Below the pieces are notes generated by a model that saw nothing but the letters and a program-made list of their open reading frames with translations, made no database searches and was not told the origin of the DNA. The position numbers and the translations under genes were made by a program. DNA of 64,000 nt from Lingula anatina. Taxonomy: Eukaryota > Animalia > Brachiopoda. The stretch lies in assembly GCA_051362555.1 (NCBI GenBank), contig CM120644.1:18994534-19058533 (forward strand). The letters are read 5' to 3'. Positions 1-64,000 of this stretch are shown here, piece after piece. The first letter of the stretch is position 1. The number at the start of each line of letters is the position of its first letter.

Positions 1-1434
1 ATTCAGTAGTATGTATATAATTACAGTCACATTCAACACCTCAACAACAACAAAAAAAAAATCAATAATAATAATAAATAAATTAATTAAAAATTTTAAA
101 AAATAATTATAATTTAAATAAATAAGTTAAATTAAGTTAAATTTAAAAACATGACTTCTATATTAAGATAAATTACCTTGAAGAAAGTTGAACCTTTTTA
201 TCGACAGATGAGTCAGTGAAAGTTGTTAAGAGAATGGAAATACCCCAGATGGTGCAGTTACAAAGAAGAGCAAATATTGTGGATGTTTCTCCTACCTATA
301 ATAAAAATGTTTTACTATTACAGCAAACTAAAATTCAAAAAGAAGTTAAGATAAAATTCAAAGTTAAACATTTAATAGATGCTATGTTTTTATAGATGAT
401 TGATGCAGATTGTTAGTTGCCTGCTAAAGCGTTTTTATTTTAACACTTTTTTTCACTATTTTAATTGTGTCAATTTTAGGTCAGTTTATAGCATAGATTA
501 ATTTTCAGAGCCAAAACACTTGCTTTTAATAACTAATAATATCATTACAAAGAAAAAATAGTGAGTAAAAACATAATTTACATAATAAATATGGCGACCG
601 CACACGCACATGGCAGGGATGGCCTCAGTGCACATCATGTAATATTGCGCATTAAATTAACTATACTTTGCAACCTTCAAATTTCATGATTTTTCTACAT
701 AATATAGCAAATTTCATAAACTTTGCTGGATATAAATTTCAAAAAGGTGAAACCAGCACTTACCTGAAATTTTTTAGCATTTTGTAGAGGCAAAACTTCA
801 AACAACCCGTACCGAAACTGCTCAAAGACTGCAACAAGGGAAAATCACGTGACCGGATTTTACTCTTTGATTTACAACTTATTTAGTTAATGGCTTGTAT
901 TAGTTTTTTTACGCGGTGCTAAAAGAGAGATTTAAAAAAGGGGTTCCATAGGCGAACTGTCAGCAGGCCTACTTCAGTTTTACACATCACTGCCCCTGGA
1001 TAGTTACGACTGAAGCGCCCCTAGCGGATTGTGATATACCTATTCATTGAACTTCTGCTGGATATTGGATGAGGTGCAAACAAAGGAGTCATGTGTAGAC
1101 CCTGGCCACTTTGCCACCAAATTGGTGAATCTGAAATGTTAACTTATGCTTCCATCTTTCTGAAAAAGCGTTTTTCCCATTTGGGTATAAAGTTGGGAAA
1201 GACTATGCTTCCTTGTTGAATGAAGATTCGGAATGTTGATTTTCTGATGGAGCAAAACATAATATTCTGTCTTTGTACTTATCTAATATATACTGTAACA
1301 AATCTGGTTGCAAGCATGTTACAAGGAGTGCACTTGTTTTTGTAACTTCATCTTCAATATTATCATCAATATTATCTGAAAAATGCACTTTTTACTTTAA
1401 TGTATTTTCACTATTATTACCTTTATTTCTGGCA

Positions 1435-2190
1435 ACTAAGCACCGAAGTCTAGTGCCCATTTTCTTCTGGATATGTGCATTCTCCTTAAGTAATCTCGCT
1501 GTCCAGACCAAAGGGCTGCTGTTGCTGGACCCTCCAGAAGGCTGAGCTGTCCCCATCCCCTACAAATGGATTGTAGCGTAATCCATTAAGTTCCATGGAA
1601 TGACTGTATAAAACAGAGGCACCCTCAGCTTCCATGGCCTGGGCTGAGCCTTCGTGGTTGTGATGGCACTCCTCTATGTGTTTCAGTTGAAAGTCAACCT
1701 CTTCCGCCGTGGTTTGGGGCAGCTTTTGAAAATTGTCACATGTCCGACACATGGTATACATATAGTGAACGTTCAGAATTTCTCCCGTATCCACTGAAAT
1801 TGCAGCCACAAATCCATGTTTAGACAAGTTTCTGGTTTGCCAGGAACCATTGAAGGTAACCCCACAGTCCACAATTTCTCCTGGATCGACATTGCTTCCT
1901 TTGAGGACCTGCTTCACGGGAAGCGGGGTGCCATCCATGCTCTCCTGAGCTCTCTCCCTGGCGCGGTTGCCTTAGTCTGTGTGTGGAGACGCCAACTGTT
2001 GTTTGCCACTGGAGCCGGCCTGGAGAGGAATGCTGAAATCTTCTCAGCAGAAGTGTTCCCCCTTCCAATAGCTCACATTCCTAGTACGCTGGCCCTATTG
2101 ACTTCAAAAATCCTCCCTGTCTTTTGCCACGTAGAGGTCCAGCCTTCCTCTGGCATACCACCTCATGCTGTGCATGCCCATCTTCCTCCC
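1435..2190 (-). pseudogene. Mutator-like (Kolobok-type) DDE transposase remnant
   Basis: ORF 1486-1938 has TFNGSWQTR..GFVAAISVDTGEIL..CRTC..CHHNHEGSAQAME..LRY..FVGDGDS. It continues after a frameshift as HIQKKMGTRLR; the upstream frame reads FEVNRASVLGM*AIGRG. Confidence 0.85.
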
Positions 2191-3440
2191 CTACCATAGT
2201 AAGAAACATTTTACTTTTAATACTGCCTTAAATTCTTTAAATTAATTTTGATTTAAATCTCAATTGATTTAAATTTCCCATTTCAAATTCCCTACATATT
2301 CACAATATGAAAACATCTTGAATCCACCTCAACATAGTAAGACTTTTGATATCTCCATTCTTCCAACTTTTGATATCTCCATTCTTCCAAACTTCTTCTG
2401 TCACAATCACCTATAACCAATAAAGATCAGATAAATATAAAAACTCAAAATATACCACTACATCTTTTATCACATAAGTAATAAAATTTAATGATATAAA
2501 TGAGATAAGCTACATATTTACTCCACTAAATCCATATAACAGATATCCCAATTTCTGTCTTCAAATATATAATAGTGTAATAAATAAAATCAAGAAAGTA
2601 TCTCTTACCTCAAAGAAACCTTTTTAGTATTATACAAAAATTCCGTAACTTACTTCATTTTCTTCAAACTTGTAACCTTATTACATTTCCCTAAGTCACC
2701 TGTAAACAACAATAAAATAAATGATAAATCAATACATTTATAAATACTTCCAACATACCATATCATATATAACTAAATATTAACTAAATAAAAAGATATT
2801 ATATACGCACATAAAAAATATACCCCTATGGATACATAATCTGCTCTGCAATAAGAAAAAAGGAAAAACATCTCTACCATACAAAAATTCACCTGAAATA
2901 ATATCTATCCCTCATAAGAAAAGTAACTCTAAGCATTGTTCCCTGCTTTTAAAGGTTATTATCTTTTCTAAATTTTCTTCCAAAATTTCTTGTGATTTTA
3001 CATACAGTCCTTCAAAACCCCATATATCAAAAATAAATATCTAAACGGGTACATCTTCTGCTCTGTAGCAACAAAGACACGTTTTCTCATTCTCAACTTT
3101 ACAAATTCCTTGGACCTCTTTTTCCTGCAACATTCCAAGATAATCAAAGTAATATTGTTTTCATAAAAAAATAACTAGATAAATTGCTCTTCATTGCCAT
3201 CAAATTCCTAACCAAGATTTCTGCTGAACATTCATACAGCCTTTTATGATTCCATTTTTTTTTTTGGACAATTGCTCTAATACAACAGAGTCTGTAGGTT
3301 TACAGCCTTTAAACTCTAATATTTTAAATGCCTGTTCATAGTAATCAAGTGGGGTGTCAACCCAATCACCTTTCTCTTCCATCAAAATGGTGCACACATT
3401 TTGGCCATCCATAACTTAAAAATAATCAATGTGCTTACTC

Positions 3441-3494
3441 CTGCTGGTGGTATAATACCAGGAGGCAGTATGGCCTCTCTGATCCTCTAGTTTT
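3441..3494 (+). mobile_element. Orphan 3' end of a Helentron/HINE
   Basis: gctggtggtataata-ccaggaggcagtatggcctctctgatcctctagtt closely matches the 3' end of the element at 14610-18147 (subTIR, hairpin, CTAG-TT). Confidence 0.75.
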
Positions 3495-3689
3495 CATTTG
3501 CTTAATTCATTTTTGCATCAAAACAAACATTTATCGATAAAATCTGTCTTAATTTCTTCAAAAATACAATGTAAAAATGGTTGACAAGTCAATAGGAAAT
3601 TATTTCTTTTTTTAAATATCTAACAATAGTCCCTCACCTGATAAGGGAAAAGACTTCTAGAAAAGCACTTTCGCTAAAAGATTCATAGG

Positions 3690-4560
3690 GCAAGACAATT
3701 TTCACTGTGAATGCAGATAATCATTAAACATGACAATTAATTTCCATGACCTGAACACCTATTTGAATCACATTTTAGAAGCTTACACTTGCAACTAATC
3801 TGGATGACACAGGACCTAGCCCCTTAAAGTGTTTTGCTATCCAATGAACTTTACTTCAAGTTTATTTTTTATTTCTCACCCACTTCCGTTGGGATGTGGT
3901 GCTTCAATCCACTGCTTGGTACATGTATCAGATTTCTGGATTTTTGTTTGATAACTTCATCTCTCAATATACAAAATCAGAGCATCTTGGGTAAGAGGCA
4001 TTCTCTGCTCACTTGGGGTTGACAAGCAAAATATGTTGAACCTGGCCTCATTGACATTACTAGCTTCCTTCTGGCTATAAAAATTGCAGACAAATTGTTC
4101 CATCACTTTTGATTTTCTCTTTGCAACTGCGAAGACTGCTCAAAGACAGGAGAAAGCATCTATGAAGTCACTATTGCCATAATTCATGTATATATCAAAA
4201 GCTTTCCTCTCTCCTTTCCCCAAAAAAGGGTTGCAGATTGTTAAAAGCACTGGAAGTATTGGTATGCCAAGCATCGATGTTTGAATTCACTAAATGAGAA
4301 TAGAACTATTGATTTTTTTTTAAGTGTGTGGATGTTTCGATGTTACCTTGCCTGCCTTAAACATATAGCCAGCCATCCTGAGTTTTTCAGCAGTTCCTCC
4401 AGTTAGTCCATGTATTGAATCTTTGTAGGAAAGTGTGGGAGTCCTGCCAAAGATTTCGTCTATTCTCTACTGATACTGGACTAAGCTGGGAGGTCCATAG
4501 CTGCCTTCTCCCAGACTCTACCATCTGGATCTATCACTATATTTCTTGCTGGGTCTGCTT
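3690..4560 (-). pseudogene. Academ-type transposase C-terminal remnant (XPG-like region + CXC Cys cluster)
   Basis: Minus-strand translation EQFVCNFYSQKEASNVNEARFNIFC..RMPLTQDAL, followed by Cys-rich ISCKCK..KCDSNRC; many stops and frameshifts. Confidence 0.7.
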
Positions 4561-4744
4561 GATACACCTAACTGTAAATCTGTAAATTTAAAAATATATA
4601 TGTAAGTACAAAAGAAGGTTTTACATATACTTTGTTAAATACAATTAGTCCTGAACAAAAACATGCATCAAAAAATAAAGAATAATTGTTGACAATGTAT
4701 TTTTTTCTTCCAACACAATGTTTTAGGCACCAAACAAATTTTGT

Positions 4745-4960
4745 ACACACCAGTCACAGCCGAGTTGTCCATTGTATTGTTTGCAGTTCCTTATCAAAGC
4801 CCGTGCAGGGCTGTCTGTGCAACAGATGAATGGAAATACGTTGAACCCCTTGAAAACTGAATGCATTTTCTCCTAGTTGTGAGCTTTCATTGGTGAAAGG
4901 TTTTAAAAATCTATTAATATTGTTGGGCTTGCTATGTCCAAATGAGACCAATTAAAAGAA
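4745..4960 (-). pseudogene. EnSpm/CACTA (CMC) transposase fragment
   Basis: FGHSKPNNINRFLKPFTNE then, frameshifted, ICCTDSPARALIRNCKQYNGQLGCDWC (D.PAR...NG..GC..C motif). Confidence 0.8.
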
Positions 4961-6219
4961 CACTTTTGGAGTGAAGATATGGAGGAAGTTCATTAAGAAA
5001 CACTGCCCTGGGGGGGGGGGGGGGGGGGGCATAAAAAGAATGTAATTTAAATTTAGATAGTCAACCAAATTCTCATGACACCAAAGAAGCTGCATGAGCA
5101 TTGCAAGGGAAAAAAAAAAGAAAAAGAAAATATATCAAAATTACCATCAAAATGGCATCTATTTCTGTGGAATTCCGACCCTACCGCTTTTTAGGAACAG
5201 TTTTTTTAGGGTTTGAATGGATGATTGAAGCAGGAAATACGCCTACTGCAAGAAAATATATGAAACAAAACGTGCGAAAGGTTATTTAAATAAAAAATTA
5301 TTTGAAGTCACTGAAAAATGATCACAAAATTACCTTCACTAATGTTACATGATGTGTCCCAGCCCAATGAAAACTTCATCTAATCCTATCTTTCCATATT
5401 AAAACTCTTCAATGCGTCCAAAGTAGTCTGTTGGTTAGCTTGTGTCATGAAGTCCATGCTAATATCAGTTTTCTTAAGAATTTCACATTTCTTGCTCAAC
5501 AAGGTCGATTTTTCTTCATTGTGTCCCATGTAACGTTAATAATGCTGAAACTTCAGAGATCGATTTTTATCAGATGACTTGAAATTGCCGCTTGAAAATT
5601 GTACATCGATAGCGATCTGCTTCCATACTCACTAATTGATGACGTCTCACACACAAATGGCTTCTTTTGCACACTGGAAAGCCAGGTAAAACTGCCAAGT
5701 GCCCCATTCTAATAATAAGTAATGCAGTGACACTGGAGATGGGATGCAGGGCACAGGTGTACTTCCCTCAATTTAACCACCACGGGATTGTTTATGGAGA
5801 TCTTCTTTGTATGAAGGAGAGAAATACTGAGCTTCGTTTCATTTTTCTTCTTACCATCCAATTAGTAGGGTGACTTCGTCTGAATTTTTCATTATGAAAA
5901 TCTGACAGAGGAGGCACATTGCAAATTGTTTGAAATTCCAAATCAAGCTTTAACAGATAAAATCACCAAATATTGTACCAAATATCTTTTGGCATACTAA
6001 ACCAAAATGAAGTTATAATAGCTCGATCTTTGGAGAATTTACCCATTTGACAAAAAAAAAAAAAAAAAAAAAAAAAAATTGTGGAATTCTAGGATTTTCT
6101 GTATCCTAAGGTGGCTCAGGATCCCTGCTGATTGAGTGTTTTGTTGTATAATTAAGTTTCTGAGATTAAAAAAAAAATAATATGGCTGCCTTGCCAAACT
6201 TGCCCACCTGTATGGCAAC

Positions 6220-7740
6220 TCTATGGTGATCAATGGGCATACAGGAATTATCTCTGAACACCCAGCTCAGCATGGCATGGCTTGTTGGCCTCTTCACTGT
6301 ACATTTCAATCAGACACAACAAAACAGTAACCTGATTTGACAGCACTGAAGTCAAAAAGACCTACTTGGATTTAGGCTATTTGCAACCTTACATCTTTGA
6401 TCTTTCAAAAGAGAATATTCAGTTTCTGTTTTATCTTATAGGTTTTTGGGGGAGGAGGCATTTCACTTTCTTTTTGGCATACCTTGCTTTCTTCTCACTT
6501 GTGGACTCTTTCAGGGAGTCAGGAAGACATGTGTTCTATGCTACATATTATGTTCAGTTGCCTGTCTAAATAAGGTACCGTAGGAAAATGTTGCCAGCAT
6601 AATCATCCAATGTGGTGACACAGGCAGGAAGACTGTGGACAATGGTTGCACCATGTAGCACCTCACAGTCATGTGTTGGTGGTTGATCTGGTTGTTCACA
6701 TGGCTCGGGGCTTTCAAATATCTGAAAGTGAAGGAGGGAATGACTGGTCCACCTAAAGGACAGGAAATTCCTAAAAGTTACAAAGTTTTACATTGAGATA
6801 TATAATTGACCATATAGTCATGTTATTCTGTACAAATTTAAGTCTGTAATTTTTCTTAGGATTGATCTTTCTGTTGGCTTTTCTGAAGAGAGCTGAGGAA
6901 TTCTTCTTGGTAGCAATATGAATAGACAAAATGCATCCATGGAAGAGACTATCTAAAGAAACTGCTGGTATTGTTTCTAGCATGTCCATATGAAAATGCT
7001 GGGTTCTCAGTCAAATCTTAAGTTTGACTTGTACTTATCTTTTACCATATTGTTCTCCTGCTCATGACCCTGATTGAATGGGATGGCTGAAAACAATTGG
7101 CTGTTTCAGAAATCACGCAGTTTGAAGCATTTTTCAGTCCTGCACAGCAGAGACTTAAGGACAGACACCTACCTGGCCTAGTAAACATAGGCCAAGGCAA
7201 AGAAAAGGTGCTGCTTGATCCAATGCTTCAACATGAAAGGTATATTTTCTCTCCTTAAGGGCTCTGCTACACAGTGGAATGTCATCATAATATGTCATGA
7301 TCTTAGAACATGAATGTTGACCAGATTCTAATGTAGCAATTAAGTCTTTTCTGCAAGTGTGGATGGGAGTTTCATCATTTGAACCTCTATTGAGCTGAGA
7401 GATTGCACAGGGTTAAGTGCAAGATTATGAGCATCATGTACTTGTTTTGAACCAGTGTGAGGACTTCATAGAAAGAAGAGATATCTTCAGTCTCAGTCTT
7501 CTAAGAGATGACACCAAGGGTCTTTTGGATTGAAATTTTTGTCCAATCTTCTCCCCACCTCCCCCAGTATTAGAATGCCTCCCTTCACCGTTCATTAATT
7601 ACTATAATTGCACTCACTGTACTCTGACAAATAGTGTCTGATCAAATATGGTTACTGTTACTGGGATTTGGCCTGGATTCAGATAGTCAACTGTTTGGCC
7701 AAAAACATCCATGCCATGCTTTATTTGATTGCCTTTATTG
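6220..7740 (-). pseudogene. Academ-type transposase remnant (copy A)
   Basis: Motifs IKHGMDV..VDYLNPGQIPV..FDQ, LFFAL..Y*AR, FSAIPFNQGHEQEN and VLHGATIVHSLP. Confidence 0.8.
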
Positions 7741-9088
7741 TGGATTCTAAAACCATCAGATAATTGATTTTGACTTTACTTGTATTATTTTCATATTTAC
7801 ATGTATAATATTTATATTTACATGCAGAATATGATTGAAAATGTGCATTTGTCATGAAAAAACACTGCAGCAGTAAAACAGGTCACAAAAATAAATAAAT
7901 AAATAAATAAATAAATAGCTCCCATTTAACTACAAAATTTCTTACTGGCTGTATGTGTTTATAAAGTAGGTTTGTTTCAAAAATCAGCCTGGTTGGATCA
8001 TTATTACATAAATTCTTGATTACTTTTTTGCATTTTTTCAAGCGTCATATCTTTTGGTATAAGTGTATGTCCCCAAAAATGCAAAGCTATTTTTGTTTTT
8101 ACTTAAAATTTGCTGGCTGGCTATATGTTGATAAGGCAGCTTCATATTGATAATACGCATGATGAATTATTTATGTGAAAGTTCCAATTGCTTTATTGTC
8201 TTTCAGACATGTTTTTCCACGGATCCATGGAATTCTGCATTTTTACGTGATTTCAGAGCATCTAAGATAAAAAAAAATAGGTTAGTTTTTTTTTACCCCA
8301 TGATAACTGTTCAGAGGAGTTTTTTTTTTTTTTTTTTTTTTTGAGACCTCAGCTCACTTTTTACTTTAAATTTGCTTAGTCACCTTATTTTTTATTATGG
8401 CAGGTTCAGTTTGAAAATCAACACGATTGAATATCCTGACAAAGTTTTATCTTTTCAGAGGTTTTTATGTATATATGTCAGATAGACTAATAATCTGACT
8501 TTCAATTTGACCTTGACTTCTGTGACCTGGTACAATCATTAAAACGTATATAGGGTAGACAATTGCAAAGACACCAAAAGTAAGTTTCTTTATGGAGAAT
8601 TATCTGAGATGTGTATATTTTTCATATAATTCCATAAATTGGTGACCATCTTGAACTATTTGCCCAAATGGGGTTATTCTCCAGAGGGTTAGGAGGCTAG
8701 TATGATTTAGTATGTCAAAAGGTATCTATATATGTACACCTGCAAAATTTGGTGTTTTTATCCAGCTAGTTGCCAATTATAGATGATGCCCTTAAAAATC
8801 TATTATGTGCTTAGATTGTGACTGGTTGTGATTGCATTGTGTCTGGCATGCACCACTGTCACAATCTATGAAAGCAGGGCAAATTGTCTCTTATTCATTT
8901 CAGTACTCTTTACAAATATTATTAATTTATGAAGATAAACTGAAAGTGTAAAGTAGCAATAGAATTCTGAAGCCAATAATGTTGTTTTTTGTGTATCAAA
9001 GGGGCCAGTAAGAGAACACCTACCAGTATAAATTCATGGTAATCTCTACTAAGATATACAATACTTCTTAGTACTTTTTTACAAGTAT

Positions 9089-9221
9089 TGTAGCAATTTG
9101 GGGTAAGTGCAGAAAAATCACCTGCCAGACCAGGGATTCGAACCCGGGACCTCTTGCTAACAGGGCGAGTGCTCTACCGCCTGAGCTACCCGGCCGGTTC
9201 TACCCTGCATCTGGCACTACA
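9089..9221 (-). mobile_element. 133-bp solo LTR containing a tRNA-like sequence (Helenus-type TRIM)
   Basis: TGTAG...CTACA termini and 4-bp TSD GTAT. Empty site in the paralog (acaagtatcttcc at ~36454). Minus strand has A box TAGCTCAGGCGG and B box GGTTCGAATCC. Confidence 0.85.
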
Positions 9222-10563
9222 GTATCTTCCTGTTTTTCAACTTTTTGTCAAACTCTCCCTTTTAAATCTAAGTTTTCTGTTGGACCAGCTATATTGTTCT
9301 TTAATACTGTTAAAATAATATGAACAGGCAGATTTTAAAGTAATCAGAAATACTTTATAAACTGTCCTTTGAGAAGAAGTCAGTCCATCAATTCTGCAGG
9401 TATGTTAAGTTGGATGTTGTCTATGTCCCAGATATTATAATGGACTTGGAGATCTTCCATCTATAAAGCACCTTGGTTTGTCTAGTCACACGGTGTAAAC
9501 AGACAGTGTAATAATCAGTATTACAATGCCCCTTCTAGACCTTTGCTTTTGTTAACATTCTTATGCTGGCTCATGTTTGGCTTTCTGTCATTCTTTTCTC
9601 AAATATACCTGCTCATCCCAAGTGATTTTTTGTACAAATTTGGAGGTGGTTTTCTGGAAAGAACAGTCTGTACGAGCTGTTTACTTGGACATTGTGCAGT
9701 TTCTGCTAGCTGTAAATTCTTAAGCTTGGCAGATGTTGGGAAATCTGACATAATATTGGAGGCTACTTTGCCTGGTGTTTCAAATATGCCTCCAATGAGG
9801 TGTAGATTGTCAAGATTCCAAATTATAAATACAACCTCTACCCACACTAACAACAACACATTTAATTTTTAATTAACATTAATAGATAATGAATCTATTT
9901 TATTTTATTAAACTATTTAACATCAGATAACATTAATTTCATTTTCGTGTAACCCTACTAACAACAGCACATATTTTAATTAGCATTAATTGAACATGAA
10001 TTGAATTTTATTAAATGTCAGATATCATTAAAGAATTCTGGTCACGTTTAGATCTATTTCTCGAATTTTGTAAATTCAGAAATCAATCTGTACACTATAG
10101 ATATGTTTTCATCAACACCCACCTTTTAAATAGTATAAAAACCTATTAGTAGAAAAACCATTTTAGTAAACCTCACCTCAGTATGCAAAAATGAAGCAAC
10201 AGATCTGGGTCACATAATAGTGTGACGACATAGAAGATAAAGGAGAAGGGCCGCAAGATTTAAGATTCCTGGATCAAGGAATTGCATAATAATAACTAAG
10301 AACTGAGGAAACAAGTTTTTGGTACACATATTAGATAATTTAACAGAAAACAAGAGAAAACCATGTCAGTACAATATAATGAATTACACACTGTGTTGAT
10401 CCCTGAAAATGAATGCTCAAATTGTTTTCTGAATATTGGGATTGTAATCAATGATAGTGTGGATTGTACGAAGGACAGCAGAAACAATGGAAGCTGGTGA
10501 GGTCACTTCTGTGCTGATGTCATTTTCTCCCAGTTGACAAAAAACTATATCTAAGTTTGCTGC

Positions 10564-10900
10564 CTAAATAGTTATGAGTTGTCTGTCAAAATCTAATTGA
10601 GAAATTCCAAAATAATTACTCATAAAAGATTCATCAAATGCTTCATTTAAGACTTCCATTTGAGGGTTATCAAGAGGGAGATACAGAACATTTATGCACG
10701 TTCTGCTTGTTGGCATTATTTGTGCTGAAAATTCTATTTGAGGTGCCAAAGTGAAACCTATTTCTCCTGGATCCCGTGATGAATGCTAGGACATCCTCTA
10801 GCATTACTGTCCTTTCATCCGCTGTCTTCTGGCGTCCTGCTGAAACAATGAGACTTGCATAACCAGAAAGACATTGATTTCCAATTATGTTTAGAAGAGG
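10564..10900 (-). pseudogene. G2E3-like HECT E3 ligase C-terminal fragment (copy A)
   Basis: LEDVLAFITGS..., then PTSRTCINVLYLP (catalytic Cys motif) ...AFDESFMSNYFG. Confidence 0.7.
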
Positions 10901-11439
10901 CCTTATATTGGGATGTATTTAATTGTCTTTCTGTACAAAAACACAATTTAAGTAGTGTAATGACTGAAGTGATTACAAGATCTAGAAGTTTTAATGATTT
11001 TCTGCATTGACAAAAAATTAACATCCCAATTGTTATCAAACTATAAACAAAGGTACTTTCTCCTACCATTCAGTATTTTCTAGGTGTGGATCCTCCCACT
11101 CGTCAGCTGAAAAATCTCCTTCAAACCTCCGATTCCTCAAATGCTGACTTTCGAGGGAGGGAGGGGGGGAGGTCTTTGTCCAGTTGATACCATTTTTTTC
11201 TCCCAAAAATTCTTTGTTCTAGCAAATCTTGCACCATTTTCACCGCCGATGCTTCTGATGTTAGCAAACATTATAATTATACTCCCTCAACCTGTTTTTG
11301 AGGACCCGGATTTGGGTGGATATCACCTGAGATTAGGAGCAATAGAAATATATTACTTATATAGAACAGACCAGGAGTTGTGGGTTATATAAGCAAAGAG
11401 GATGGAACATGGGTACCGGTAAGACCTGGCATACTTATT

Positions 11440-11730
11440 GACATCTTCACACCTCCTCTCAGACCACAGCCTCCTAAGATGGCCTTTCAATGGCTTGTTC
11501 AAGGGGCTATGCCTTAGAGGTGAACCCTCCTGGGATGATGGCTGGCTTTGCTGACACTCACTGTAGTGCCGGCACCACTCTCTCAGTGGTATGGGTGGAG
11601 AAGGCATCCATAACCAGAAGAGAAGGGTGTAGCTCAATGTAGTGTCTAAACATTTGGCCACCCATTCTAGCATGAGGTCTTCTGTCGTGTAGGCTGTAGG
11701 ACCTTTCCTCTGGACTTTCCACTACTGGAT
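11440..11730 (-). pseudogene. pogo-family DDE_1 transposase fragment
   Basis: EDLMLEWVAK..LLVMDAFSTHTT..PAIIPGGFTSKA*PL..LRRLW. Confidence 0.8.
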
Positions 11731-11799
11731 TTCTCTTGCCTTAAATAATGAAAGAATGCCATATTAAATAGTGATATTTATAACTGAACCTTGTAACTT

Positions 11800-13761: not shown

Positions 13762-14284
13762 GTTTTAAAGGTTTCATAACACACTGGTATAAATACTTTT
13801 TATTTCAGTGTGAGCAATGTGACATCATCCCATTTCTTTGGGTCTTCTGTAGATTTCGCTATCATTTTTTTGATTGTTTGATTAAATCTCTCTGAAATGA
13901 ACACCAAGACATTAAAATAAATGTAAACATGAAAGACATCAAATAGTTTAGTGTCCTCCTTAAATGTGAATTATACAGTCTAAAACAGATGACTGGTTGG
14001 AAGGTTTTTCTGAATGTACAGGGGACTTCAACAAATGGAAATGCAGCGGTTATCTCTGTCAGCACAGAGTCTGGCTTATTACTAGCATGGACAGAGCGGA
14101 CTTCAGCAAGAAGGGTGCAGTTAGACTTAATGTTGTTCTTAATTGTCCTGAAAAGCTGCTTGCTGTTTTCAGTTTTGCTTGCTGGCTTTGTTCCCAAGTG
14201 TCACTGGTATATACATATGATGATAAACATAAACTTATTTTTTGTAGTATGTCCTAATGTTAATTCCTATTCACTTTGTTCAAG

Positions 14285-25915: not shown

Positions 25916-25919
25916 TTAA

Positions 25920-38125: not shown

Positions 38126-38301
38126 AAAATTGGGATCATACAAGAAACTAGTGAGCTCCCCCTGAGCAATAAAAGTTAGTCGTGAGGCCATCAGCACTAA
38201 AATTGTTTGGTAGGGATGGCTCCTGGTGTAAAGGCTTTAAAAAGCTGCGCCCCATGAGTAGAGTCGGTCATGAACTGGTCCCCAGAAAGATGTCTGAGTT
38301 A

Positions 38302-48096: not shown

Positions 48097-48414
48097 GAAA
48101 TGTAACTTTTGGTATCAACTGCAGTCTGTCGCTTTCAAATGTAATTAACATGGCACCAAATTACCAGTTTTTGGTATCTCTTAAAGTCAATCTCTAAAAA
48201 AATGCATTATATCTCACAAGCAGCAAACATACTACAGCTGCCAAGTTCACCATTTTCATGATACTATTTAAATAACATTATAAAGACCAGGGGCGTAACC
48301 AGATCCTTTAAAATTGTACGTACAGATTTTGAAAATTCCCAGGTACGATTATATTCCGTGAAAAATACACTGAATTTATGGAGAATAATATCATGCTTGG
48401 CTCAAAAAATTGTA

Positions 48415-50853: not shown

Positions 50854-51115
50854 TACACATTAATTTGAAAACCAAAATTTTACCTTCATATATAGAAAAT
50901 TATTGTAATTCTTTTAAATATGAGAGGCAGGAAGTATGTTTTAACCGTATAATTATATTCTTTCAAAACTCACCTTTTTTTTTTGTTTGTTTTTGGAGCA
51001 GGAACCTGACCACTCTCAGTCTCTGAATTTGTCTCTGTCTCAGTTGCGGTCTCTGTAATACCTTTCGCACTATCTTCAGTGTCTCCATTTGAAATTACTA
51101 AGTTGTTTGTACCGG

Positions 51116-52401: not shown

Positions 52402-53350
52402 TTAAATACTGTTGGTGACTGTAACAAGTATATGCCTAACCTTGACACACCTAGCCTCTGCTATAATTTCTGCTGTCTCAAACAACAAATATGGTGTGGA
52501 AGCCCTGATGTTTTGGGCATCGAAATATGGTGTGTCTGATTCCAAGAGTAATTTACACTCCAAGACAGCTTTGACCGCCTCCAACTGGAATTTGTTGAAG
52601 GTTTTAACCAGCCTGGTGAAGCCATAGTATATATATTGTTATAAACACGCAGCCACATCTCCATGAGCTGCTTAATTGTTTCCTGTAAAACAGTGGATAT
52701 GGATGGGCAGATGCTCTGGGATGTTATTCTGTTGTAGGATTGGTAACAGATGCCTGATGGCATACACATAGTTACCACCTTGCTGTCAATTACTGAGGGC
52801 AATAAATCATTGAAGAGATCTTCCTGATCCTGCCAGACATGGGAGGACTGTAAAAAATTAAGACCAACCTCTCCGATGGCGGTGACATGGGGATCTTGAA
52901 CCATCGTCCTGAAGGCTATGAGATTTTGCTCCCACAAAGCAGGGATTTGGCCTTTTTCGGTTGAAAGCCTATAGCTACGTACATGTTCTCTGGCTTATTT
53001 AACAAGGCACTCCGAGTCGGATACCTCTCCGGATCACAATATACCGCTACTGAGCCCACCATATTAACCTCCTTGCCCTATGGCACAGGAACTTTTTCCC
53101 GCAGATTCTCCAGGGTTCCATTGGACGGCAGATTATAAGCTTGAAGAGTCTTGTCCAAGTGGAAATAGCTATGGAAAGCCTGGACTCCGACTCCCATCAC
53201 TACATCTGCAACTGTTGTCCGTTGGATACCTGCAGGCACCTTGAAATTGGATACCTGCAGGCACCTTGAAATTGGATACCTGCAGGCACCTTGAAATTGT
53301 TCAGCCAAATCCCATTGGGCTAGATTCATGCATGAAGCTAACTTCAGCAC
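52402..53350 (-). pseudogene. tatD: TatD-family DNase remnant
   Basis: FHSYFHLDK; AVYCDP; AIGFQPK; AIGEVGLNF; IHIHCFTG; LLLESDTPYF; STP motif. Frameshifted; 25-bp x3 tandem repeat at 53224-53298. Confidence 0.85.
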
Positions 53351-53963: not shown

Positions 53964-54794
53964 GTTGGTTAACTATAAAAAAGGAAACAAAATTATTATT
54001 TCATTTCATGCACGTACATATAACTAAAAAACATTGCTTATCTCAAGAAAATAGCAAGCAAGTTACAGAGGAGCATATGCTAGGTTATGCCTCGCCTTTC
54101 TACCACAAATATAATAACAATTTACAGTCCTGTAGCCATCTATTTCCAAGGGGCAATTTCTTTTTTTTATGACATTTTACCGGCAAAAATGGCAGTTAGT
54201 AAGAACCCCCTTATCAACTCCCGACTATGTGCCTGATAAACCAAAACTAGTGACTCCTCTCTCTTTAAAAGCCGGAATTTGCATGAAGGTACACTTGTAC
54301 TATTGTAAAAAAAGTATATATGGCATATAAATTAGCAAACATTACCTTAAATAACTATTTATAATAATCTTCCACACTGGCTAGATAGGAGCGCTTGTAT
54401 TCCGCAGACTATATAGGACGATGGTATATATATAATGAACTCGTTGAACATCACTAACTGATGACATATTAATCTAGCCAGCGTATCTAGCCTGAAGATG
54501 AAGGGAGTGGGAGCTAGGTCTCCTGTGAAGAGAGGATCAGTCAAAGTTTGAAAATTTTGGTCTCCATTTTTGGCTGCCATGGCCATTTTCTCTAAATTCA
54601 AATTCATCTTTTGATCTCTGGCAAAAGGGTTTTGGCAAAATCGTGCTCAAACAATTGGAATGGTGGGATGCTGACATTTAATGTTTTTTCAAAAGTTGAA
54701 TGACCTAGAATATAATGAAAATAGTCTTCATCAAAGAAGTATTGTAGAAGTGCCAAATTAATTGGATGGGCTCTTGTGATTGAGTCATTATAGT

Positions 54795-57425
54795 CCCAGA
54801 TAGCATGCAAACGTTGGCCCAACGTTGGCCCAACGTTGCCTTGGTTGACCATGCATACGTTGGCCCAACGTTGGGTTTCCATCTAAGTGCTCACTTTGGC
54901 CAACGGTTGGCTGAACGTATTTGGCCAACGTTGGCCCAACGTTGGTCAATTTCAATGCTAACGCATTGCCAACATATTCCCAACCAAACTACGTTGGCCC
55001 TACATTGGGCCAACTAATATTCAACGTTGGCCCAACAATTACCCAACCTGTAACCAACAGTGTATTTACGTTGGTTCTACTAATAACCAACATCGGTCCA
55101 ACGATTACCCAACCTCAAACCAACATTGCTTTAACATTGGGCCAACGGTAGGCCAACTGGTCACCGAGGTTTCTGCAATTTGCACAACGATTAATGACCC
55201 AACCTAAAACCAGGGGCACAGTGATTTACATCATTGAACCAAAGGCAAAATAATTTTATCCAGAATCACATACGTAGTAGAGCACTGTAATAACATGTCT
55301 GATGCACAGGCAGATCAATGTCCTGATGAAATATCTTAAGCATCTGAAATCTACAGACTGCAAGGCATAACTGAAAAATTAGCAAGCTAATTAATGGATG
55401 AATTCTTCAGAGGACTTGATCTGCCTGTGTTGCGGTAGAAACAAAAAGATTAGTGATATATTTTAAACTGTTTAATTAATTCATAACATTACACTGAACA
55501 ATACCTTCAACCAACTAAATAATGTGATGGGAATGGGAAAATAGTACAAAAAGACATCTCAAAGAAACTTTTTATAAAAATATTATAATATTAAATTTAA
55601 ACAATCATAAATGTATTTTATATGAATTGTTTAATGATTAATGTCAAGAAAATTATTACCAGTCCTGTGAAAGAACTTCCCACCTTATTCCTGGAGTCAA
55701 GGCAGTTTTTTTTTTTCACTATTATAGTGTTTTTCACCCAATCCAAGATTCACGATTATTTCAATTTAAAAAAAATCTTCATTAAATTAAATTTAAATCC
55801 AGAAACCATTGATTATATATCAGGTAAGGTGTTTAAAATTCAAAAGAACTGTCATTAAGTAGATAAGTTACTAGTAAGTCTATAAAATCACATAAAGTCT
55901 CTTCCTTCAGGCAAAATCTCAGACATTGTCTCTTCAAATAAAATCAGTGGTCATATGAATGCAATCTTCATTTTTTCTCTCTCGATCTTTCCTGTCCTGC
56001 GCCTGCATGATCTTTGGCAAAGCACGATTAGTTAGGTGTATCTTCAACATCTTTTTCTGAACAGTCACAGAAGAGTGTGCTGCATCTACAAATTTAAATA
56101 TTAAAAATTTAACTTGAAATATAATGCTGGAATTATTATGCATATGCATCATATGCATAACATTTTTACATGCTTAACTATACCACTTTCCACATCACTG
56201 TGTTCATATACATACTAGTAGTTGTGTATTATAATATAATATGATAATCTCCCCATGTTCTCTAAGTTAGGCAAAAGCTAATATCTTTAACTTTTACAAG
56301 TGAGTGTCTGTGTGTGCAGTAATTCATAGCAAAATTACTAGTAGTTCTTCCATGTACACTTGACCATGGATTCAGTTTTAAAGGGTTCAAAATCCCATAC
56401 AACTGTACTGTACAACTGAATACTATATTATTTAGTACAACCAACAACTCTATCACAGAATTCACTGGCAAGGATTCATACAGACACATAAGAACAATTG
56501 GCTTTGAAGGACCATTAAGGCTCTAATTCAAGTAATTTTCAGGGAAAGGTATTATCCCCATCTGTGAATTATTGTCTGTATGTATGTCAAGCTTGAAGTA
56601 ATATTTTACCAAGGGCAAAAATGGTGAAATACAAACCCTTTTCAAACCTAATAGCAATGCAAGTACTTTTCAAAGTCACAAACAAAAATCAAAGTGCTGG
56701 ACTAAATTTGAATACTGTTCAAGGCTGTATGGATCCTGGTGCATCAGTAAATTATATGGAGAAATACAAAATTGAAAGACACTTACATGCTCACTTCTTA
56801 TCCTGTCTCTTTATCTCTTCATTTTCTTTCTAGTTTCCAAAAGATGTATTCTTTTTTAATCCAGAAATCCATGTTTTCAGTCTCTTCCTTATAGAACATT
56901 CTTGACCCTCTGGCTTAGATGTTTGAAATGGCTTAACCGTTGCGCGCTTAAACTGACCTGATTGAGCATGCTGTAGGCAAACAGTTTATATCAAACTGAC
57001 AGTTAAGATAAATTAAAGCAGAAAACTGATTTTAACTCAAGGAATTTAAACTCATAATGAAAAAAAAATTAAGAAAAAATTATATATGTTTCTTTTAAGC
57101 CTAATAACTCTATGTATATGATCAAAAGATAAGTATATGTGCTTCTCAGTTGTGAACAGAAACACTTTCAAATTAATTATTGGGTTTTTAATTGCATACG
57201 TTGACTACGTTGGCCCAACATTGGCACAACGTGTGCATATTGCAGTTACGTTATATATTTCATAAAATGATGTGGTTGGGCCAACGTGTACATATTGCAG
57301 TTACATTATGCATAAAATGATGTAGTTGGGCCAACGTTGGGCCAACGTAATACTGCCAACGCCAACTATGTGCCAACAAACCAACCATTCCCCTACGTTG
57401 GCCCAACGTATGCATGCTATCTGGG
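54795..57425. mobile_element. Non-autonomous EnSpm/CACTA-like element
   Basis: TIR CCCAGATAGCATGCA, 2-bp TSD GT, and many subterminal acgttggcccaacg repeats at both ends. Confidence 0.9.
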
Positions 57426-58150
57426 GTGACAGTTCTGGAGTCTGGGTGAGAGATATAGATAATCTGTGGTAACTGAACACTGACATGGTACGTACATTCA
57501 TGATGCAGAACTGACAACCTTGTATTAGGAATGTTTTTCTGTTTGGGCAATGAAATACCATTTTGCTAACATTTGAAACCAAAATTTTACCTTGTTCCAA
57601 CTCTCGAATTTCCTGTTTGCTTGCATTATGTACAAATTGGAAGTTACATAATGTTTTGACTTGCTTGTTAAGTCTCAAAAATAGTGACATAATGCATGAT
57701 TTCTGTGAAATAGGGGTGAGGGTTTTAGAAATAGGGCAAACTTTTAGGGTGGACCCATAACAGTTTTCATACTCTTCCCATGACATCTCCGTAGAGTACT
57801 GCCTATCCATGGTCACGACTAATAAATTTAGGGTATTAAAAAAATGAGTTGCATGTGATGTTGAATCATTTAATGGGACTGGAAAATTGGAAACTTTATA
57901 AATCTGGAATTTGCTTTTTAATGGAGTGAGGGTACCTTAATTGATTGTAACAAAAATAGTGTTATTGATTCTGGATGTCGCGAGCTTGGCTTGTGAAAAG
58001 TAAAAGCTGGGTTGAGTGATTGCAATCACTGATTGCAAAGTCTGTGTTATCTGTTTTTAAATGTTTTTGGATCATTTCTGGCATTGTTTTGATCATGTCT
58101 ACCGAAACTATGTCTGGGGATAATTTATTTGTGAGTTCTGTTATGCCCTG

Positions 58151-58318
58151 CAGGCCCGTAGCCAGCAATTTGAAAGGGGGGGTTCTTTTTCTGAAAAAGT
58201 GGACCTTTTACCATATAATCCCCATGTACCTAGGTCAAATTTTACCCAGAGTGGACCTTTTTCCAGCAAAAAGGGGGGTTCTTTCGAACCCCCCGAACCC
58301 CCCCTGGCTACGGGCCTG
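58151..58318. mobile_element. hAT-like MITE with 5-bp TSD CCCTG
   Basis: TIR CAGGCCCGTAGCCAG; removing it restores the env frame (..DTFTQG|ITEL..). Confidence 0.9.
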
Positions 58319-60023
58319 CCCTGGGTGAAAGTGTCTAAATTCCTGGGGATTTCAGTGGCTAAGTGTGTTTGATGCTGGGTTTTCGCTAGAATGTTTATGA
58401 TCAATTTAGTCTGTTCTTGTATGGTATCAATGTTGTTGTGTAGCTGTGTTAGTTCCATGTGATTTTATCTGATGGCCAAGATGGTGTTACTGACTCTTGT
58501 GTTAACTGCTTGAAAAAATGAACCTAACTTTTGTGTTTGCCTGTAAAATGCAGTTGTTGTAATTGTTTCTTTTCTGCAGTGCGTTTAAGTGGTCAATAAC
58601 CTTGTTTACGTCTTCTGTGGCTGTCCCAAACAATGAATGTGACAAATGTCCAACAAACAGTAGCAGCGATCTTTTCTCTCTGGAGTTACCGTGCTCTTCT
58701 GCCAGAGCTTTGACAGAGTTTGACCTTCAAGAGTCTGTCCTTGGCTTGTTTGTGCATTTGGAATATCTGACGTTCTGCTGACTTCACAGCGAGATATTGC
58801 GGGTACTTCTGTGTTGCAAACGGATCAATTTCCAATTTCTTCCTTGAGGGGTTGTGGTAAGGGGACTTCAAACGTGTGGAGCCAGTAATCTTTTGATGTC
58901 CATGCGAGTGCTACTTCCTTGAACTGGACTCCATAATTAACTTGGGTTAATGTGGAGATAGCTGATGCTGGATGGAGTAGCATTATTATAAGAGTGCACA
59001 TGATAATGAGGCTTCCTGGGAAAAGAATGATTTAGCCATTACCTTTTATTGCTTTTTGAGTTCTAATTGATTTGCTATAGCATTTAATCTAGGGTATCTC
59101 ACCGGCAATGGAAACTCTCTAATGTACAAGTGCACCCACAGAGTTGGCTGGCTTTAGGGTTACTTGCAGGGGCAGAGTGATGCCAAGATCTTGACAGAAG
59201 GCTTGCATGGCTTGCCGTTGGGCTTCGCCAATCCCCCTGATTTTTTGTCGCCTGATGTGGATATAAAATCAGATAGGCTTTTTAGGGGTTTATTAATACC
59301 AAAAATGAGCGAGATGTTTTTTTTTTTTCCGGATTGGGATTTCTCTCCCGTACTTACAAATTCAGAAAAGGGGTTCTTTCCAGTTTGGGATACTTGCACA
59401 ACTGAATGTGCTTTCTCACCCGTACTAGGAAAAGAAGGGAAGGAGAGGCTCATAAGGGATGGGATTGGCCTTTGATCTTGCTTTCTGCTTTGGGATATCT
59501 GCCCAATTGAATGGGTTTTCTCTCCCGTACTAACAAAGACAGAAGCAGAAGAGGAGGTGGTAAGTTTGCGGCAATGCGCACCAAAGCTGCCCGTCTACTA
59601 CCCTCCATGGAAAATACAAGGGACTTTTCCGAAGCAGACCGAAGAATTGCAAGACTCCCAAGAATAGACCTCCCCCTCCAGGACGTCCACCTCCATGGCC
59701 TCTGTTGATGTTGAAGGAACTGGTGTGGAAGTCCCCCCTCCCCCAGACACCACAAAAGAGGTTTGGGTAATTGTGGGGTCAGTTTCCAACCTTATATCCC
59801 TGACTGGTCCCGAGAAAACACTTGGCTCCCCAATATGTTTGGGTCTCACTGGCTTCTTGGATTTCCCAGTCTTAGAATAAGTTGGGAGTTATTTTTTTCC
59901 ACCCAGTTTTTATTGGAAATCCCCTTGGAGAGTACTTCAGACGCTAAGTTGTGCAGCCACGAGTAGTACTCACCCTACTTATTCTCTTTGGCCATTTGGA
60001 TTTTACATAAGTCCACAACGTCT

Positions 60024-60429
60024 TGTACTAAGTTCTTAGATATACCGTGGGTATAATCTAGTCGCTAAGGGCTCTAATCCACCGTTGAAAGATTCTAGGT
60101 TCAGTATGCTATTCCCGACTTGGGTTATGCCCAGAGAGAAGAGTAACGCAACACCACTGTTTGGTTACAAAAATCAAAACTCATTTATTGCCAGGTCGCA
60201 GCCTGATTTTATACCTAAATTTGCATGACAGACTTTATTGAATATCTTTATTGAAACTTTATAATTAAAGGAGATGAGATATGAAAAGAGATTAACTTTA
60301 GATATGAGCTATAAACTTTAAAGGACATGACATATGAACAGGGATTATAAGAGCTATAAACTTTGACACGTATTACGAGTCGTGCGCTCAAGCCCGCGAC
60401 TCAGGTTGAATAAATTACTAGTCTGAACA
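60024..60429 (-). mobile_element. Solo Gypsy LTR (related to 32481-32782)
   Basis: TGTAC...GAACA termini, 4-bp TSD GTCT, and the shared agtaacgcaacaccactgtt..aaaatcaaaactcattt block. Confidence 0.9.
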
Positions 60430-60635: not shown

Positions 60636-60851
60636 TTAGGTTATATGTTGTTCAGCTTTCTTGCAACGAGGACATTTATACTTATCAATATCCCAGGCAT
60701 CAGTCACTGTGATATTAACACAGGACCCATGATACCATTCATCACAGAAATCACACTGAATCATGAACCTTCCACCATATGGTTCTCTACAAACACAACA
60801 TAAAGTGGTGACAGTAGTATCATTAGGAAGTAAATGGCTACAAATATACAA
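60636..60851 (-). pseudogene. PHD finger fragment
   Basis: LCCVCREPYGGRFMIQCDFCDEWYHGSCV..DIDKYKCPRC. Confidence 0.8.
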
Positions 60852-61974
60852 AGAATCAATACTTACTGGTTGTAGCTAAAACTGTTTCTTTTCCCTCTGA
60901 AATCTTGAAATCCATATGAAACAAGCACACCTTGTTGGATTTTCTCATTTGCAGTTAATTCTGAAGTCTTCATTCCAGAAATGGTTTTATCATCCCATTC
61001 AATGACTGCATAGGCATCTGAAAGCACAAACGACATCTGTGTATTAAACTTTGTAACCAAAATTACAATATTGTATGATATTCACAGCGCAATCACTGTT
61101 CCTCAAGATATACCATTAGGTCCATGTGAAAAAATATAGAGAAAAAAAAATTACAGATTAAGAATTTAATGTTATAAACAGTACATCGACATAGATAGCC
61201 GTTCACCTTACAGTTGTATTACATGCCTTCTGACACACCGCAAAGGGTGATTAAGTGTTAATGGGTGACGGTAATGTCACAATATCCGGAATGCACCAGT
61301 GGTGTGGAATTTTATGAGATTACTCATATCTGCATAGTTAAAATAAAAAAAACACTCATGTTCCTTTAGTCAGGCCAAGCCAGAGACATATCGGTCTAAT
61401 AGCCAAGGCACTACAACGAAAAAGAAGTGGAATTAAGTGCTGCTCTATAAATTAAAATTTTGAATTTAAAAATTATAAACATATGATAAATATATACACT
61501 ATTTATACATGCCCAACCAGTAAGAAAGCGTTTGAACAGATCTGCACTTATGACGTCCCTTCACCAGATGCTGTTATGAAGTTGACAATGAAGCTGCGAA
61601 AAATATAGCAGCGTTTTCCATTACAGAATCTGATGATGTTGAGACAGGAGTGTAAATCTATTTAATCGTCCCCTTTTTTGTAAAGCAGTAAACTGTAAAC
61701 TACACTAAATATATAAAAATAATATATAAATAAATGTAAAATAAAATACTGGTTTGAAACATATTTACATGTAAATGAAACATAATATAATACATATATA
61801 CAATGATGGTGTATAAAAATAAATACAAAGTAAACTATAGACAAAGTAAATACCTGTAAATATAAAATTAATCTATATAAAATTACAGCTATTTACATAA
61901 AAATAACACATTAAAAATATTGTACATATTTACAAAGTCAAAGCCTAAAAATACCTGGACAGACATGGCAGTAA

Positions 61975-63270
61975 CTAAATAACCTGTGGCTCTGCCTTCA
62001 ACATGAATTACTTCGGGCAATACCTTCTGAATGTGGTTAATATACTTAACACACTTAGCCTGATCCACAGTGGTCCAGAATTCTTCAATGGCAACCACAA
62101 GTTGATCTTTCGTTCTTGGTTCCACCCGGTTTCTGATAAATTACTTTAGTTCAGCCCAAAGCATCTCGATAGGGTTCAGATCAGGGCTCTCGGGGGGCGT
62201 CTTGAACCAGTTGATGTTGTGCGGCTCAAAGAACGTGGCCGTCAACCTGCTGATATGCATGGGCGCATTATCCTGCTAGAACCTGTGTCCCAGAGGAAAC
62301 CTAGCTGTAGTTAAATCAGAAGAGATACGGAAGTGTTACTATTTTCAGAACTTTCAGCTGATGGACAAAGATAAGCAATGCATACTCTAAATTGATACTG
62401 ACTTTTTTTTAAATTTTAATTGCTGATTTCCGCTTACCTTTTTTGCAGAAACGGAATCAGAGTGTCCCGAAGAATGTCCTGGTACGCCTCACTGTTCATC
62501 GTGTCAGTAAACATAATGATGGGAGTTGCCCCTCTTTGCAAATGCCTGAAATAGATAATATCAGTCCATTAGTTTACATGAACATGCGCTTTTATTTTAA
62601 AAGCCTAGTCATAATCTTGGCGAATTAGTTTTCAGAACCGGAGTGTTAAATTACACTTGTTAAATTTTGATTTATTACATTTCAACAAGCAAAGTTAACC
62701 CTTTTTTATCACAACAGTATTAAACATTTCACTGTAGTGTCTCACCTGCCCATACATGAACCTTGTAGGGGAGCTTCGGTTTGCTGCGCAGTGGGCGGGC
62801 GGACTTATGTCGTTGCCGTCTTTATCCCTGATGACTTTCCGAAAAATTTATCGACCATTCGTGTCCATCTCCACGGTACACTCATCTGAAGTGAATGCGC
62901 AAATAAGATAAATAAGACACATTTTGAAATTCAAAAGGCAAATTCAAGAAAAGAAATAATGTTTGTATACCTTTTTAACAACGGTGCTAATATATATACA
63001 TGTAGTTTTACAGAGTGAGCGGAATATCCGGTAATAGATCTTAAACAACAATACATGTACATGTTGGTTTTTTAATGCAGATCTGTGGGTTGTGGCTTAC
63101 CAGAAAACACAACGTCCTCAAACTTGTCCTCTACTGCCAGGGCCTCCTGGCACCAGTTCACTCTTTTCGGACGGTTCACAATGCTAACAAGCTGGCAGTA
63201 GCCCTTCGCACTTTTCACCCAGCCAACCTTCTTCCTTAATCTCCGCACAGCACTGGATGACACAATCAGA
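61975..63270 (-). pseudogene. Intron-containing Tc1-like DD34E transposase
   Basis: Exons ~63270-63101, 62888-62747, 62546-62418 and 62300-61978 with GT..AG boundaries. Motifs VVFS|DEC, KVHVW, QDNAPMH, WFKTPPESPDLNPIEMLW; 34 residues between D and E; in-frame stops. Confidence 0.9.
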
Positions 63271-63597
63271 TCTGTTAAAACGAACGAAAAAGAGCGGTAT
63301 ATATATATGAACATTCAGTCAATAATTTATTATTTCTTCACTGTATGAAAAAATCATTTTGACAAATTACAGTGTATGTTAACCACTATGTGCCAGATGC
63401 TTTCTCTTGTTTAGCTCAATGAGGAGTAGATTTCCTAACATTTCCTCCATTTGATGCGCGATGATCGCCACGGTCATATTTCGATGTGCATCATTTTAAA
63501 TACATCTTTAATGGTATTATTACATAATTATTACCTGCACCTTAGTAACTTTTTTTTGGTATCAAATAACAATTTAGCTATGCTTTTTTCCATCTTC

Positions 63598-63627
63598 ATT
63601 AGATTAGATTAGATTAGATTAGATTAG
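63598..63627. repeat. (ATTAG)6 microsatellite
   Basis: Direct reading of the sequence. Confidence 0.9.
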
Positions 63628-64000
63628 CATTGATTTCCGATTCAGGTTCCTACTGGATCCTCTTTATCGGACTCTTCCTCCAAAACTAACTTGTGACTTC
63701 CGATGATGTTGATTTCGGACCTATAAGTGTTGGTAGTCCAAGTTTACGTAATTTTTCTGGGTAACTAAGGTTATTCATGTCATCCTATAAGTTAGTTGTG
63801 AGAAGACACATTTCTTCTTGAACAAGACTCTCTCTGATACGATGATAATGTCCTTGCCTTCATCATCTATCTAAAATATGATAGTTATAAGTATATATTT
63901 AGAAACATGTCCCATCTTTACCTGCTTTGACAATCTTGTCCTAACTAACTGAGGCATGTATTGCCATGGGCAATTCACTTGTTATACCCTCCTCGCTTGT

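Follow-up and report, generated by a model that had tools for sequence, protein, structure and literature searches.

A 64-kb Window of the Lingula anatina Genome in Which Named Transposon Coding Remnants Lie on One Strand: a Putative piRNA-Cluster-Like Locus

We analyzed a stretch of 64,000 nucleotides from the brachiopod Lingula anatina (assembly GCA_051362555.1, contig CM120644.1, positions 18,994,534 to 19,058,533; "the window" below denotes this whole stretch, and coordinates are counted from its first base), which is ~37% G+C, has no N over its 64 kb, and is littered with remnants of DNA transposons, long interspersed nuclear elements (LINEs), long terminal repeat (LTR) elements, and an F-type env gene (Table 1). 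Coding remnants were surveyed without regard to strand in two Pfam scans, the first taking every stop-to-stop open reading frame (ORF) of at least 45 aa outside the satellite (n = 521; 258 plus and 263 minus) and the second taking stop-poor segments with stops read as X (n = 261; 135 plus and 126 minus) and omitting the satellite, most of the second copy of a duplicated block, and a tandem array at 49 to 50 kb. Transposon-type matches at E ≤ 0.01 were recovered in the two scans at 13 loci, all on the minus strand and none on the plus strand (two-sided P = 2.4e-4). At the stricter E ≤ 1e-3, 10 of the 13 remained, again all minus (P = 0.002), and the curated Pfam cutoffs were passed by six, likewise all minus (the Mutator-like transposase, RVT_1, the integrase, SWIM, the PHD finger at 60.7 kb, and DDE_3). 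No plus-strand Pfam family rose above its cutoff in either scan of the window. A minus-strand bias of the named coding remnants is an observed property of the window, and every count that describes it is drawn from this single 64-kb window.

The same asymmetry is seen in the lengths of the ORFs, with 8 minus-strand ORFs versus 1 plus-strand ORF of at least 150 aa and 57 versus 35 of at least 80 aa. The make-up of the window observed in both Pfam scans is transposon dense and host gene poor: neither scan found an intact host gene or host exon, and transcriptome sequencing (RNA-seq) reads mapped over 18 to 38 kb contained no GT..AG joint. We take the PHD, SWIM, TatD, BEN, and P2RX7_C pieces to be transposon accessory domains here. 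Sub-cutoff chance matches with E values of 1e-4 to 1e-2 turned up on both strands (Slo-like RCK, FYRN, and DUF6041 on the plus strand and NIP_1, Caskin, AgrB, and CitMHS on the minus strand), and the DDE_Tnp_4, BEN, and gag matches are therefore treated as leads only.

Relatives of two of the elements were also compared with both strands. The best 120 of the 619 relatives of the LINE reverse transcriptase matched in TBLASTN only the frame at 12385 and the segment from 46404 to 46676, both minus. The env frame has 465 relatives in a full HMMER search, with Baculo_F above its cutoff in 5 of the 12 top relatives scanned, and the 150 relatives listed gave eight TBLASTN blocks, all minus, that run from 59010 to 57493 and resume at 54795 to 54509; env is thus broken and split by a ~2.7-kb insertion. 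A word-index search of longer proteins returned no env relative among 345 candidates, and an Atlas search returned nothing. The env family comprises hundreds of ~800-aa relatives, about half of those scanned being without a Pfam env annotation. The region from 54509 to 60308 is laid out as an LTR, then a low-complexity stretch, and then the F-type env, without pol between them, and a short G+C-rich insert within env (58200 to 58350) looks by eye like a small miniature inverted-repeat transposable element (MITE).

A preliminary description of the window, made from its letters, had stated that all recognizable transposon coding fragments share the minus strand, whether they stem from DNA transposons, LINEs, LTR elements, or env, and that there is no convincing plus-strand coding fragment or host gene; for the coding remnants that a tool could name, the 13 of 13 strand-blind loci, together with the second LINE end and env, uphold the shared strand. 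Its tally of ~25 remnants exceeds the number that could be verified, since 5.3 kb of the window is duplicated and about ten of its labels lack a tool match, and its probability of ~6e-8 is therefore not supported. The labels in question are Academ (twice), EnSpm, pogo, maT, MULE, P-like (twice), Harbinger Myb, Rex1, "ballast," and Ulp1; of these, Academ, EnSpm, and pogo seem correct on visual inspection of the minus-strand translations, and a HECT label found a minus-strand match at E = 0.037 only. The Academ-like and EnSpm/CACTA-like assignments (3879 to 4530 and 4650 to 4870) are presumptive labels.

A test that needs no labels points the same way. In a self-comparison of the window at the DNA and protein levels, 11 of 11 comparisons between dispersed repeats, from 10 families, were direct (P ~1e-3). 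Left out before this count were the duplication blocks, self-matches of tandem arrays, the partner LTR at 31820, one palindrome, a 156-bp inversion, and the opposite-end pairs of single elements (19317/19864, 48411/50857, and 54794/57408). The count can be fed by old local copying and by loss of nearby inverted copies.

Transcription was assessed from four of nine same-species RNA-seq runs (X1, X4, and X5, which are stranded, and X7), all poly(A) RNA from a tissue that is not given, over positions 18001 to 38000 and with ~6% of each stranded run. The direction counts exclude X7, which proved unstranded (29.5 versus 29.1 in the deepest bin), and five deep bins (from 18001, 19335, 27339, 34676, and 37344), in which 51 to 92% of the mapped reads continue into unlike sequence, were dropped as cross-mapping repeats with expression elsewhere. 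On the Gypsy 3′ region, the first mates of X4 and X5 fall on the plus strand only, a pattern compatible with a dUTP-type library made from sense transcripts, and the direction of the libraries was read from this. X1 then contains faint RNA, likely from the plus strand, at 31341 to 37343; the count for this interval, which was picked after the data had been viewed, omits a repeat bin. The peak of its reads immediately precedes an A16 run (33241), which is the pattern expected of plus-strand RNA captured by oligo(dT). Over the 25 low-copy bins, X1 has ~83 first-mate-minus versus 43 first-mate-plus reads. The plus-strand transcription that the preliminary description had proposed accordingly has a faint, post hoc signal of ~19 reads in X1 and no plus excess in X4 and X5; it is a hint, not proof.

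Table 1. Features of the window and the evidence by which each was recognized. The last column gives the Pfam domain and position for the 13 loci of the strand-blind survey.
Feature	Position	Strand	Evidence	Survey locus
Harbinger-like transposase remnant (weak)	1043..1282	-	Pfam E 0.0087, below cutoff	DDE_Tnp_4 (1043)
Mutator-like transposase remnant (Kolobok-type in the preliminary description)	1489..2162	-	PF20700 E 8e-23 (scan 1), 4.8e-24 (scan 2)	Mutator-like (1489)
Helitron-like 3′ end, imperfect hairpin and CTAG	3428..3490	+	86% like 18083-18153; fold	
Academ-like transposase remnant	3879..4530	-	translation by eye; no Pfam match	
EnSpm/CACTA-like transposase remnant	4650..4870	-	translation by eye; no Pfam match	
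Duplicated block, copy 1	5940..11224		BLASTN; 93.8% identity, global alignment	
Helenus-like solo LTR, tRNA-Thr-like core	9089..9221	- (from tRNA)	ARAGORN, Rfam, ends	
pogo-like transposase remnant	11356..11740	-	translation by eye; no Pfam match	
3′ part of a LINE reverse transcriptase in a 460-aa open frame	12385..13812	-	RVT_1 E 8.3e-19; 619 homologues	RVT_1 (12385)
Noncoding Helitron-like element with 146-bp tandem array (16.8 copies)	15491..18147	+	TRF; hairpin, CTAG, then T	
MITE-like element, 127-bp terminal inverted repeats	19317..19864		self-comparison	
PHD-finger remnant	21211..21564	-	Pfam E 1.2e-4	PHD (21211)
244-aa frame, zinc-finger-like	22702..23433	-	51 residues 90% identical to Lingula anatina gene-model start	
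Gypsy-type integrase remnant	25911..27208	-	rve E 7.9e-16; Integrase_H2C2 E 3.8e-18	Gypsy integrase (25911-27208)
Faint RNA, run X1	31341..37343	+ (likely)	~19 first-mate-minus versus <1 first-mate-plus reads	
SWIM zinc-finger remnant	31363..31590	-	Pfam E 1.3e-5, above cutoff	SWIM (31363)
LTR with gag-like remnant and part of a second LTR	31820..32753	-	Retrotrans_gag E 0.0014; repeats; ends	gag (31902)
Duplicated block, copy 2, with own 218-bp and ~930-bp extra segments and 156-bp inversion	33129..39367		comparison with copy 1	
High-copy noncoding repeat, three co-oriented copies	34709..34926; 27339-27498; 43751-43966		self-comparison, reads	
HECT-like remnant (weak)	37806..38000; also copy 1 near 10567-10785	-	E 0.037	
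P2RX7_C (nanor-like) remnant, in segment unique to copy 2	38305..38562	-	E 2.6e-4	P2RX7_C (38305)
Tc1-like remnant	42464..42727	-	51% identical to 63099-63233, co-oriented	
PHD-finger remnant	46129..46416	-	E 4.7e-6	PHD (46129)
Second LINE, 3′ end	46404..46676	-	profile of 120 LINE homologues, E 3.5e-7	
BEN-domain remnant (weak)	47285..47977	-	E 0.0088	BEN (47285)
Element with 41-bp inverted ends, inner degenerate ~300-bp tandem array	48411..50857		TRF, self-comparison	
TatD-like nuclease remnant, broken, two frames	52405..52994	-	E 5.1e-6 and 2.5e-4	TatD (52405)
F-type env gene, broken, several frames, split by insertion	54509..59010	-	465 relatives; TBLASTN blocks	
~2.7-kb insertion splitting env; palindrome-rich ends, inverted copies of each other	54796..57490		self-comparison	
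LTR akin to 32481-32753, located upstream of env in the minus direction	60016..60308	-	79% direct repeat	
PHD-finger frame	60639..60875	-	E 1.7e-10	PHD (60639)
Tc1 transposase remnant	61892..63314	-	DDE_3 E 3.4e-11	Tc1 DDE_3 (61892)

Besides co-orientation, the history observed in the window includes local duplication, nested insertions, and insertions that postdate the duplication, and the remnants look as if they had been cut down in place. The blocks at 5940 to 11224 and 33129 to 39367 represent a single duplication of ~5.3 kb whose copies are 93.8% identical and differ by an inversion of 156 bp (9537 to 9692 versus 36771 to 36934). Present in copy 2 only are a 218-bp repeat and a ~930-bp segment with the P2RX7_C piece, neither with a clean target duplication; these segments could have been inserted into copy 2 or lost from copy 1. 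Copy 1 contains a 133-bp solo LTR with TG..CA ends and a 4-bp target duplication, for which copy 2 has the empty site, and this LTR was therefore inserted after the duplication. Its tRNA-like core is still called tRNA-Thr(TGT) by both ARAGORN and Rfam and is the sole match in the Rfam search of the window. The two copy-specific segments that can be oriented, this LTR and the P2RX7_C piece, both read on the minus strand. The LTR resembles Helenus, a group of tRNA-bearing LTR elements known in Lingula anatina and pteriomorph bivalves, for which solo LTRs have been described (PMC10886601; here and below, cited works are represented by those of their passages that bear on the point), in its tRNA-Thr-like sequence, TG..CA ends, and 4-bp target duplication. 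Unlike a full Helenus element, which has two LTRs with a primer site and a polypurine tract between them, it is a solo LTR, likened to Helenus by description rather than by alignment to a consensus.

Among 528 candidates, the zinc-finger-like 244-aa frame (22702) matched one, a Lingula anatina gene model, over residues 1 to 51 of the latter, and an Atlas search with the frame recovered unnamed clusters only. The start of that gene model probably derives from another copy of this element that has been read as a first exon; the model carries VWD domains, and its start could represent a transposon-derived exon or a gene prediction error. Within the frame, three X1 reads skip 42 bases (23226 to 23269) with ends that are not GT..AG, probably derived from another allele or copy.

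Noncoding elements are interspersed with the coding remnants. A scan of the window for Helitron-like hairpins gave one strict match on the plus strand (18147) and none on the minus strand; the plus orientation assigned to the ends at 3490 and 18147 presumes the Helitron end convention. The 18147 end undergoes heavy transcription at other places in the genome, with a strand bias of 173 versus 4 in X1, and its reads enter many unlike flanks.

Two further origins of the layout were considered and rejected. Retroposition of mRNAs does not fit two observations: runs of at least nine A residues are balanced between the strands (14 versus 18), and none of the 14 on the minus strand has a poly(A) signal in the adjacent 40 bases. 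A single giant mobile element and a co-oriented array at a telomere are both rejected by the reasoning that unrelated classes are present with their own ends.

At least five unrelated element classes are represented among the remnants, and the window is therefore not one composite element. We interpret it, from its layout, as probably being a one-strand locus like a PIWI-interacting RNA (piRNA) cluster, putatively transcribed on the plus strand. In general, clusters of this kind yield, from one strand, 24- to 32-nt small RNAs that bind PIWI proteins and carry a 1U bias. In such a locus, elements would insert in both directions, and a long plus-strand RNA would be processed into piRNAs matching active-element mRNAs, so that antisense copies would be kept and sense copies lost or never favored. 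Retained copies would then be whittled by deletion and further insertion, and noncoding Helitron-like and MITE-like elements, which have no mRNA to target, would escape the orientation filter. Several observations weigh against this interpretation. The window was selected out of a very large scan, which weakens every P value given here, and curated cutoffs are met at six loci only. Both Helitron-like ends (3490 and 18147) point in the plus direction, opposite to the coding pieces; they would fit a filter that acts on coding copies only, because noncoding elements carry no mRNA target. In the 25 low-copy bins, X4 and X5 have ~25 versus 34 and ~16 versus 41 first-mate-minus versus first-mate-plus reads, respectively, and thus no excess of plus-strand RNA; both runs are nearly empty at 31 to 37 kb, and two 667-bp bins are without reads in all four runs. 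The X1 reads could have originated in the other copy of the duplication or in similar sequences elsewhere, and the direction of the libraries is deduced from Gypsy-matching reads alone. Among the sequence signals of transcription, AATAAA is not depleted on the plus strand (74 plus versus 63 minus in the masked window), splice site depletion is not seen on the plus strand of the window, and the G+T skew that accompanies transcription is absent (G+T, 50.3%).

It is unlikely, in our estimate, that the window is instead part of a long intron or long noncoding RNA on the plus strand, where ordinary selection against sense insertions bearing poly(A) and splice signals would yield the bias with no piRNA role. 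The faint plus-strand reads are equally compatible with pre-mRNA, the flanks lie beyond the analyzed 64 kb, and an antisense bias of LTR elements and LINEs within genes is established (PMC3088655 and PMC1391917). That genic bias, however, is reported as strongest for LTR elements, partial for LINEs (a LINE1 skew of −0.3), and least for DNA transposons (PMC1391917), which were excluded from the antisense bias analyzed in PMC3088655, whereas the Mutator-like, two Tc1, SWIM, three PHD, and TatD pieces of the window all lie on the minus strand. The undepleted plus-strand AATAAA is also contrary to selection against read-through termination. The fully biased DNA transposon genes and the undepleted poly(A) signals thus favor a piRNA locus over an intron, without amounting to proof. 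That the layout is the fossil of a former one-strand cluster, now silent and yielding little or no RNA, we consider improbable. Such a fossil would account for the near-zero depth of the unique parts in three of the four runs and for young noncoding elements facing the opposite way; set against this, poly(A) RNA-seq of an unspecified tissue, of which ~6% of the stranded runs was sampled, is ill suited to reveal piRNA precursors, and both the LINE with its 460-aa open frame and the tRNA-bearing LTR inserted after the duplication still lie on the minus strand. We give equally little credence to chance acting on nonindependent pieces, in which duplication, nesting, loss of inverted copies, and multigene elements would have inflated the bias of an extreme window picked out by a scan. 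The 5.3-kb duplication is real, accessory domains may share one element (the PHD finger at 60.7 kb stands beside Tc1), and the six matches above cutoff would by themselves give only P ~0.03. With duplicates merged, however, the 13 blind loci and three found by homology are still all minus and belong to unrelated classes, and the loss of inverted copies operates within a family, not between families.

Beyond a probable piRNA-cluster-like locus, a broader proposal can be framed from the sequence, which we put forward tentatively and hold to be somewhat doubtful. The window could be a working brachiopod piRNA master locus in which selection acts on the coding sequence of all transposon classes, their accessory genes (PHD, SWIM, TatD, BEN, and nanor-like), and env and ignores noncoding Helitrons and MITEs; pan-class antisense archives of this kind, recognizable by sequence alone, might then be the general animal form, with the Gypsy-only flamenco as a special case. 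If piRNAs are confirmed, the window would offer a sequence-only route to transposon defense loci in Brachiopoda and would make the trap model testable for DNA transposons, with coding pieces antisense and noncoding elements unbiased. If they are not, it would be a striking yet ordinary repeat graveyard within a long transcript.

Our literature searches, which covered titles only and left subscription papers mostly outside, found no title on brachiopod piRNA clusters, and the closest systems come from other animals. Like flamenco and the flam-like clusters of Drosophila, the window is a long, gene-poor, one-strand run of transposons with a Gypsy integrase and an antisense F-type env remnant (PMC10643416). 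The passages of that report describe flam-like clusters as strongly enriched in Gypsy and as owing their strand bias exclusively to it, whereas the DNA transposon and LINE pieces of the window are as biased as its LTR pieces. As the bias extends beyond Gypsy, the window is not a flam-like cluster in the strict sense, and the term "flamenco-like" used in the preliminary description does not apply in that sense. Expression in somatic cells of the ovary is a further trait of flam-like clusters. In the planarian Schmidtea mediterranea, the type A (Seed) clusters are likewise large, mostly one-strand, gene poor, and antisense to transposons; as excerpted from 10.64898/2026.01.28.702291, their antisense content is mostly LTR and DNA transposons are mainly sense, in type B, unlike the antisense DNA transposon pieces of the window. 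With the read-through core piRNA clusters of mosquitoes, which are one-strand, driven by an upstream gene, and rich in antisense virus-derived sequence in the portions of 10.1101/2022.08.22.504762 drawn on, the window shares the layout of a one-strand trap; it differs in that the trapped pieces are transposon genes and that no upstream gene is visible within the window. Most piRNA clusters of Nematostella are also described as one-strand (passages of PMC5731801). In the uni-strand clusters of Trichoplusia ni, the relevant passages of PMC5844692 give 57% of insertions (68% in a 77-kb example) and 80% of transposon bases as antisense. These clusters resemble the window in being one-strand, of similar size in the 77-kb example, and antisense to more than one family, although all named coding pieces are antisense here, rather than a partial share, and the window is known from sequence, not from piRNAs. 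The piRNA clusters of the mollusks Lymnaea stagnalis and Crassostrea gigas are enriched in Gypsy, Kolobok, hAT, Dada, Polinton, and Academ, and the main-text passages of PMC6128900 do not report insertion orientation within them. They favor young elements, unlike the window, most of whose pieces are broken. In its combined content of Gypsy and DNA transposons, however, the window is like these lophotrochozoan clusters, and breadth of DNA transposons in a cluster is thus not new, since on the evidence of those passages molluscan clusters already show it.

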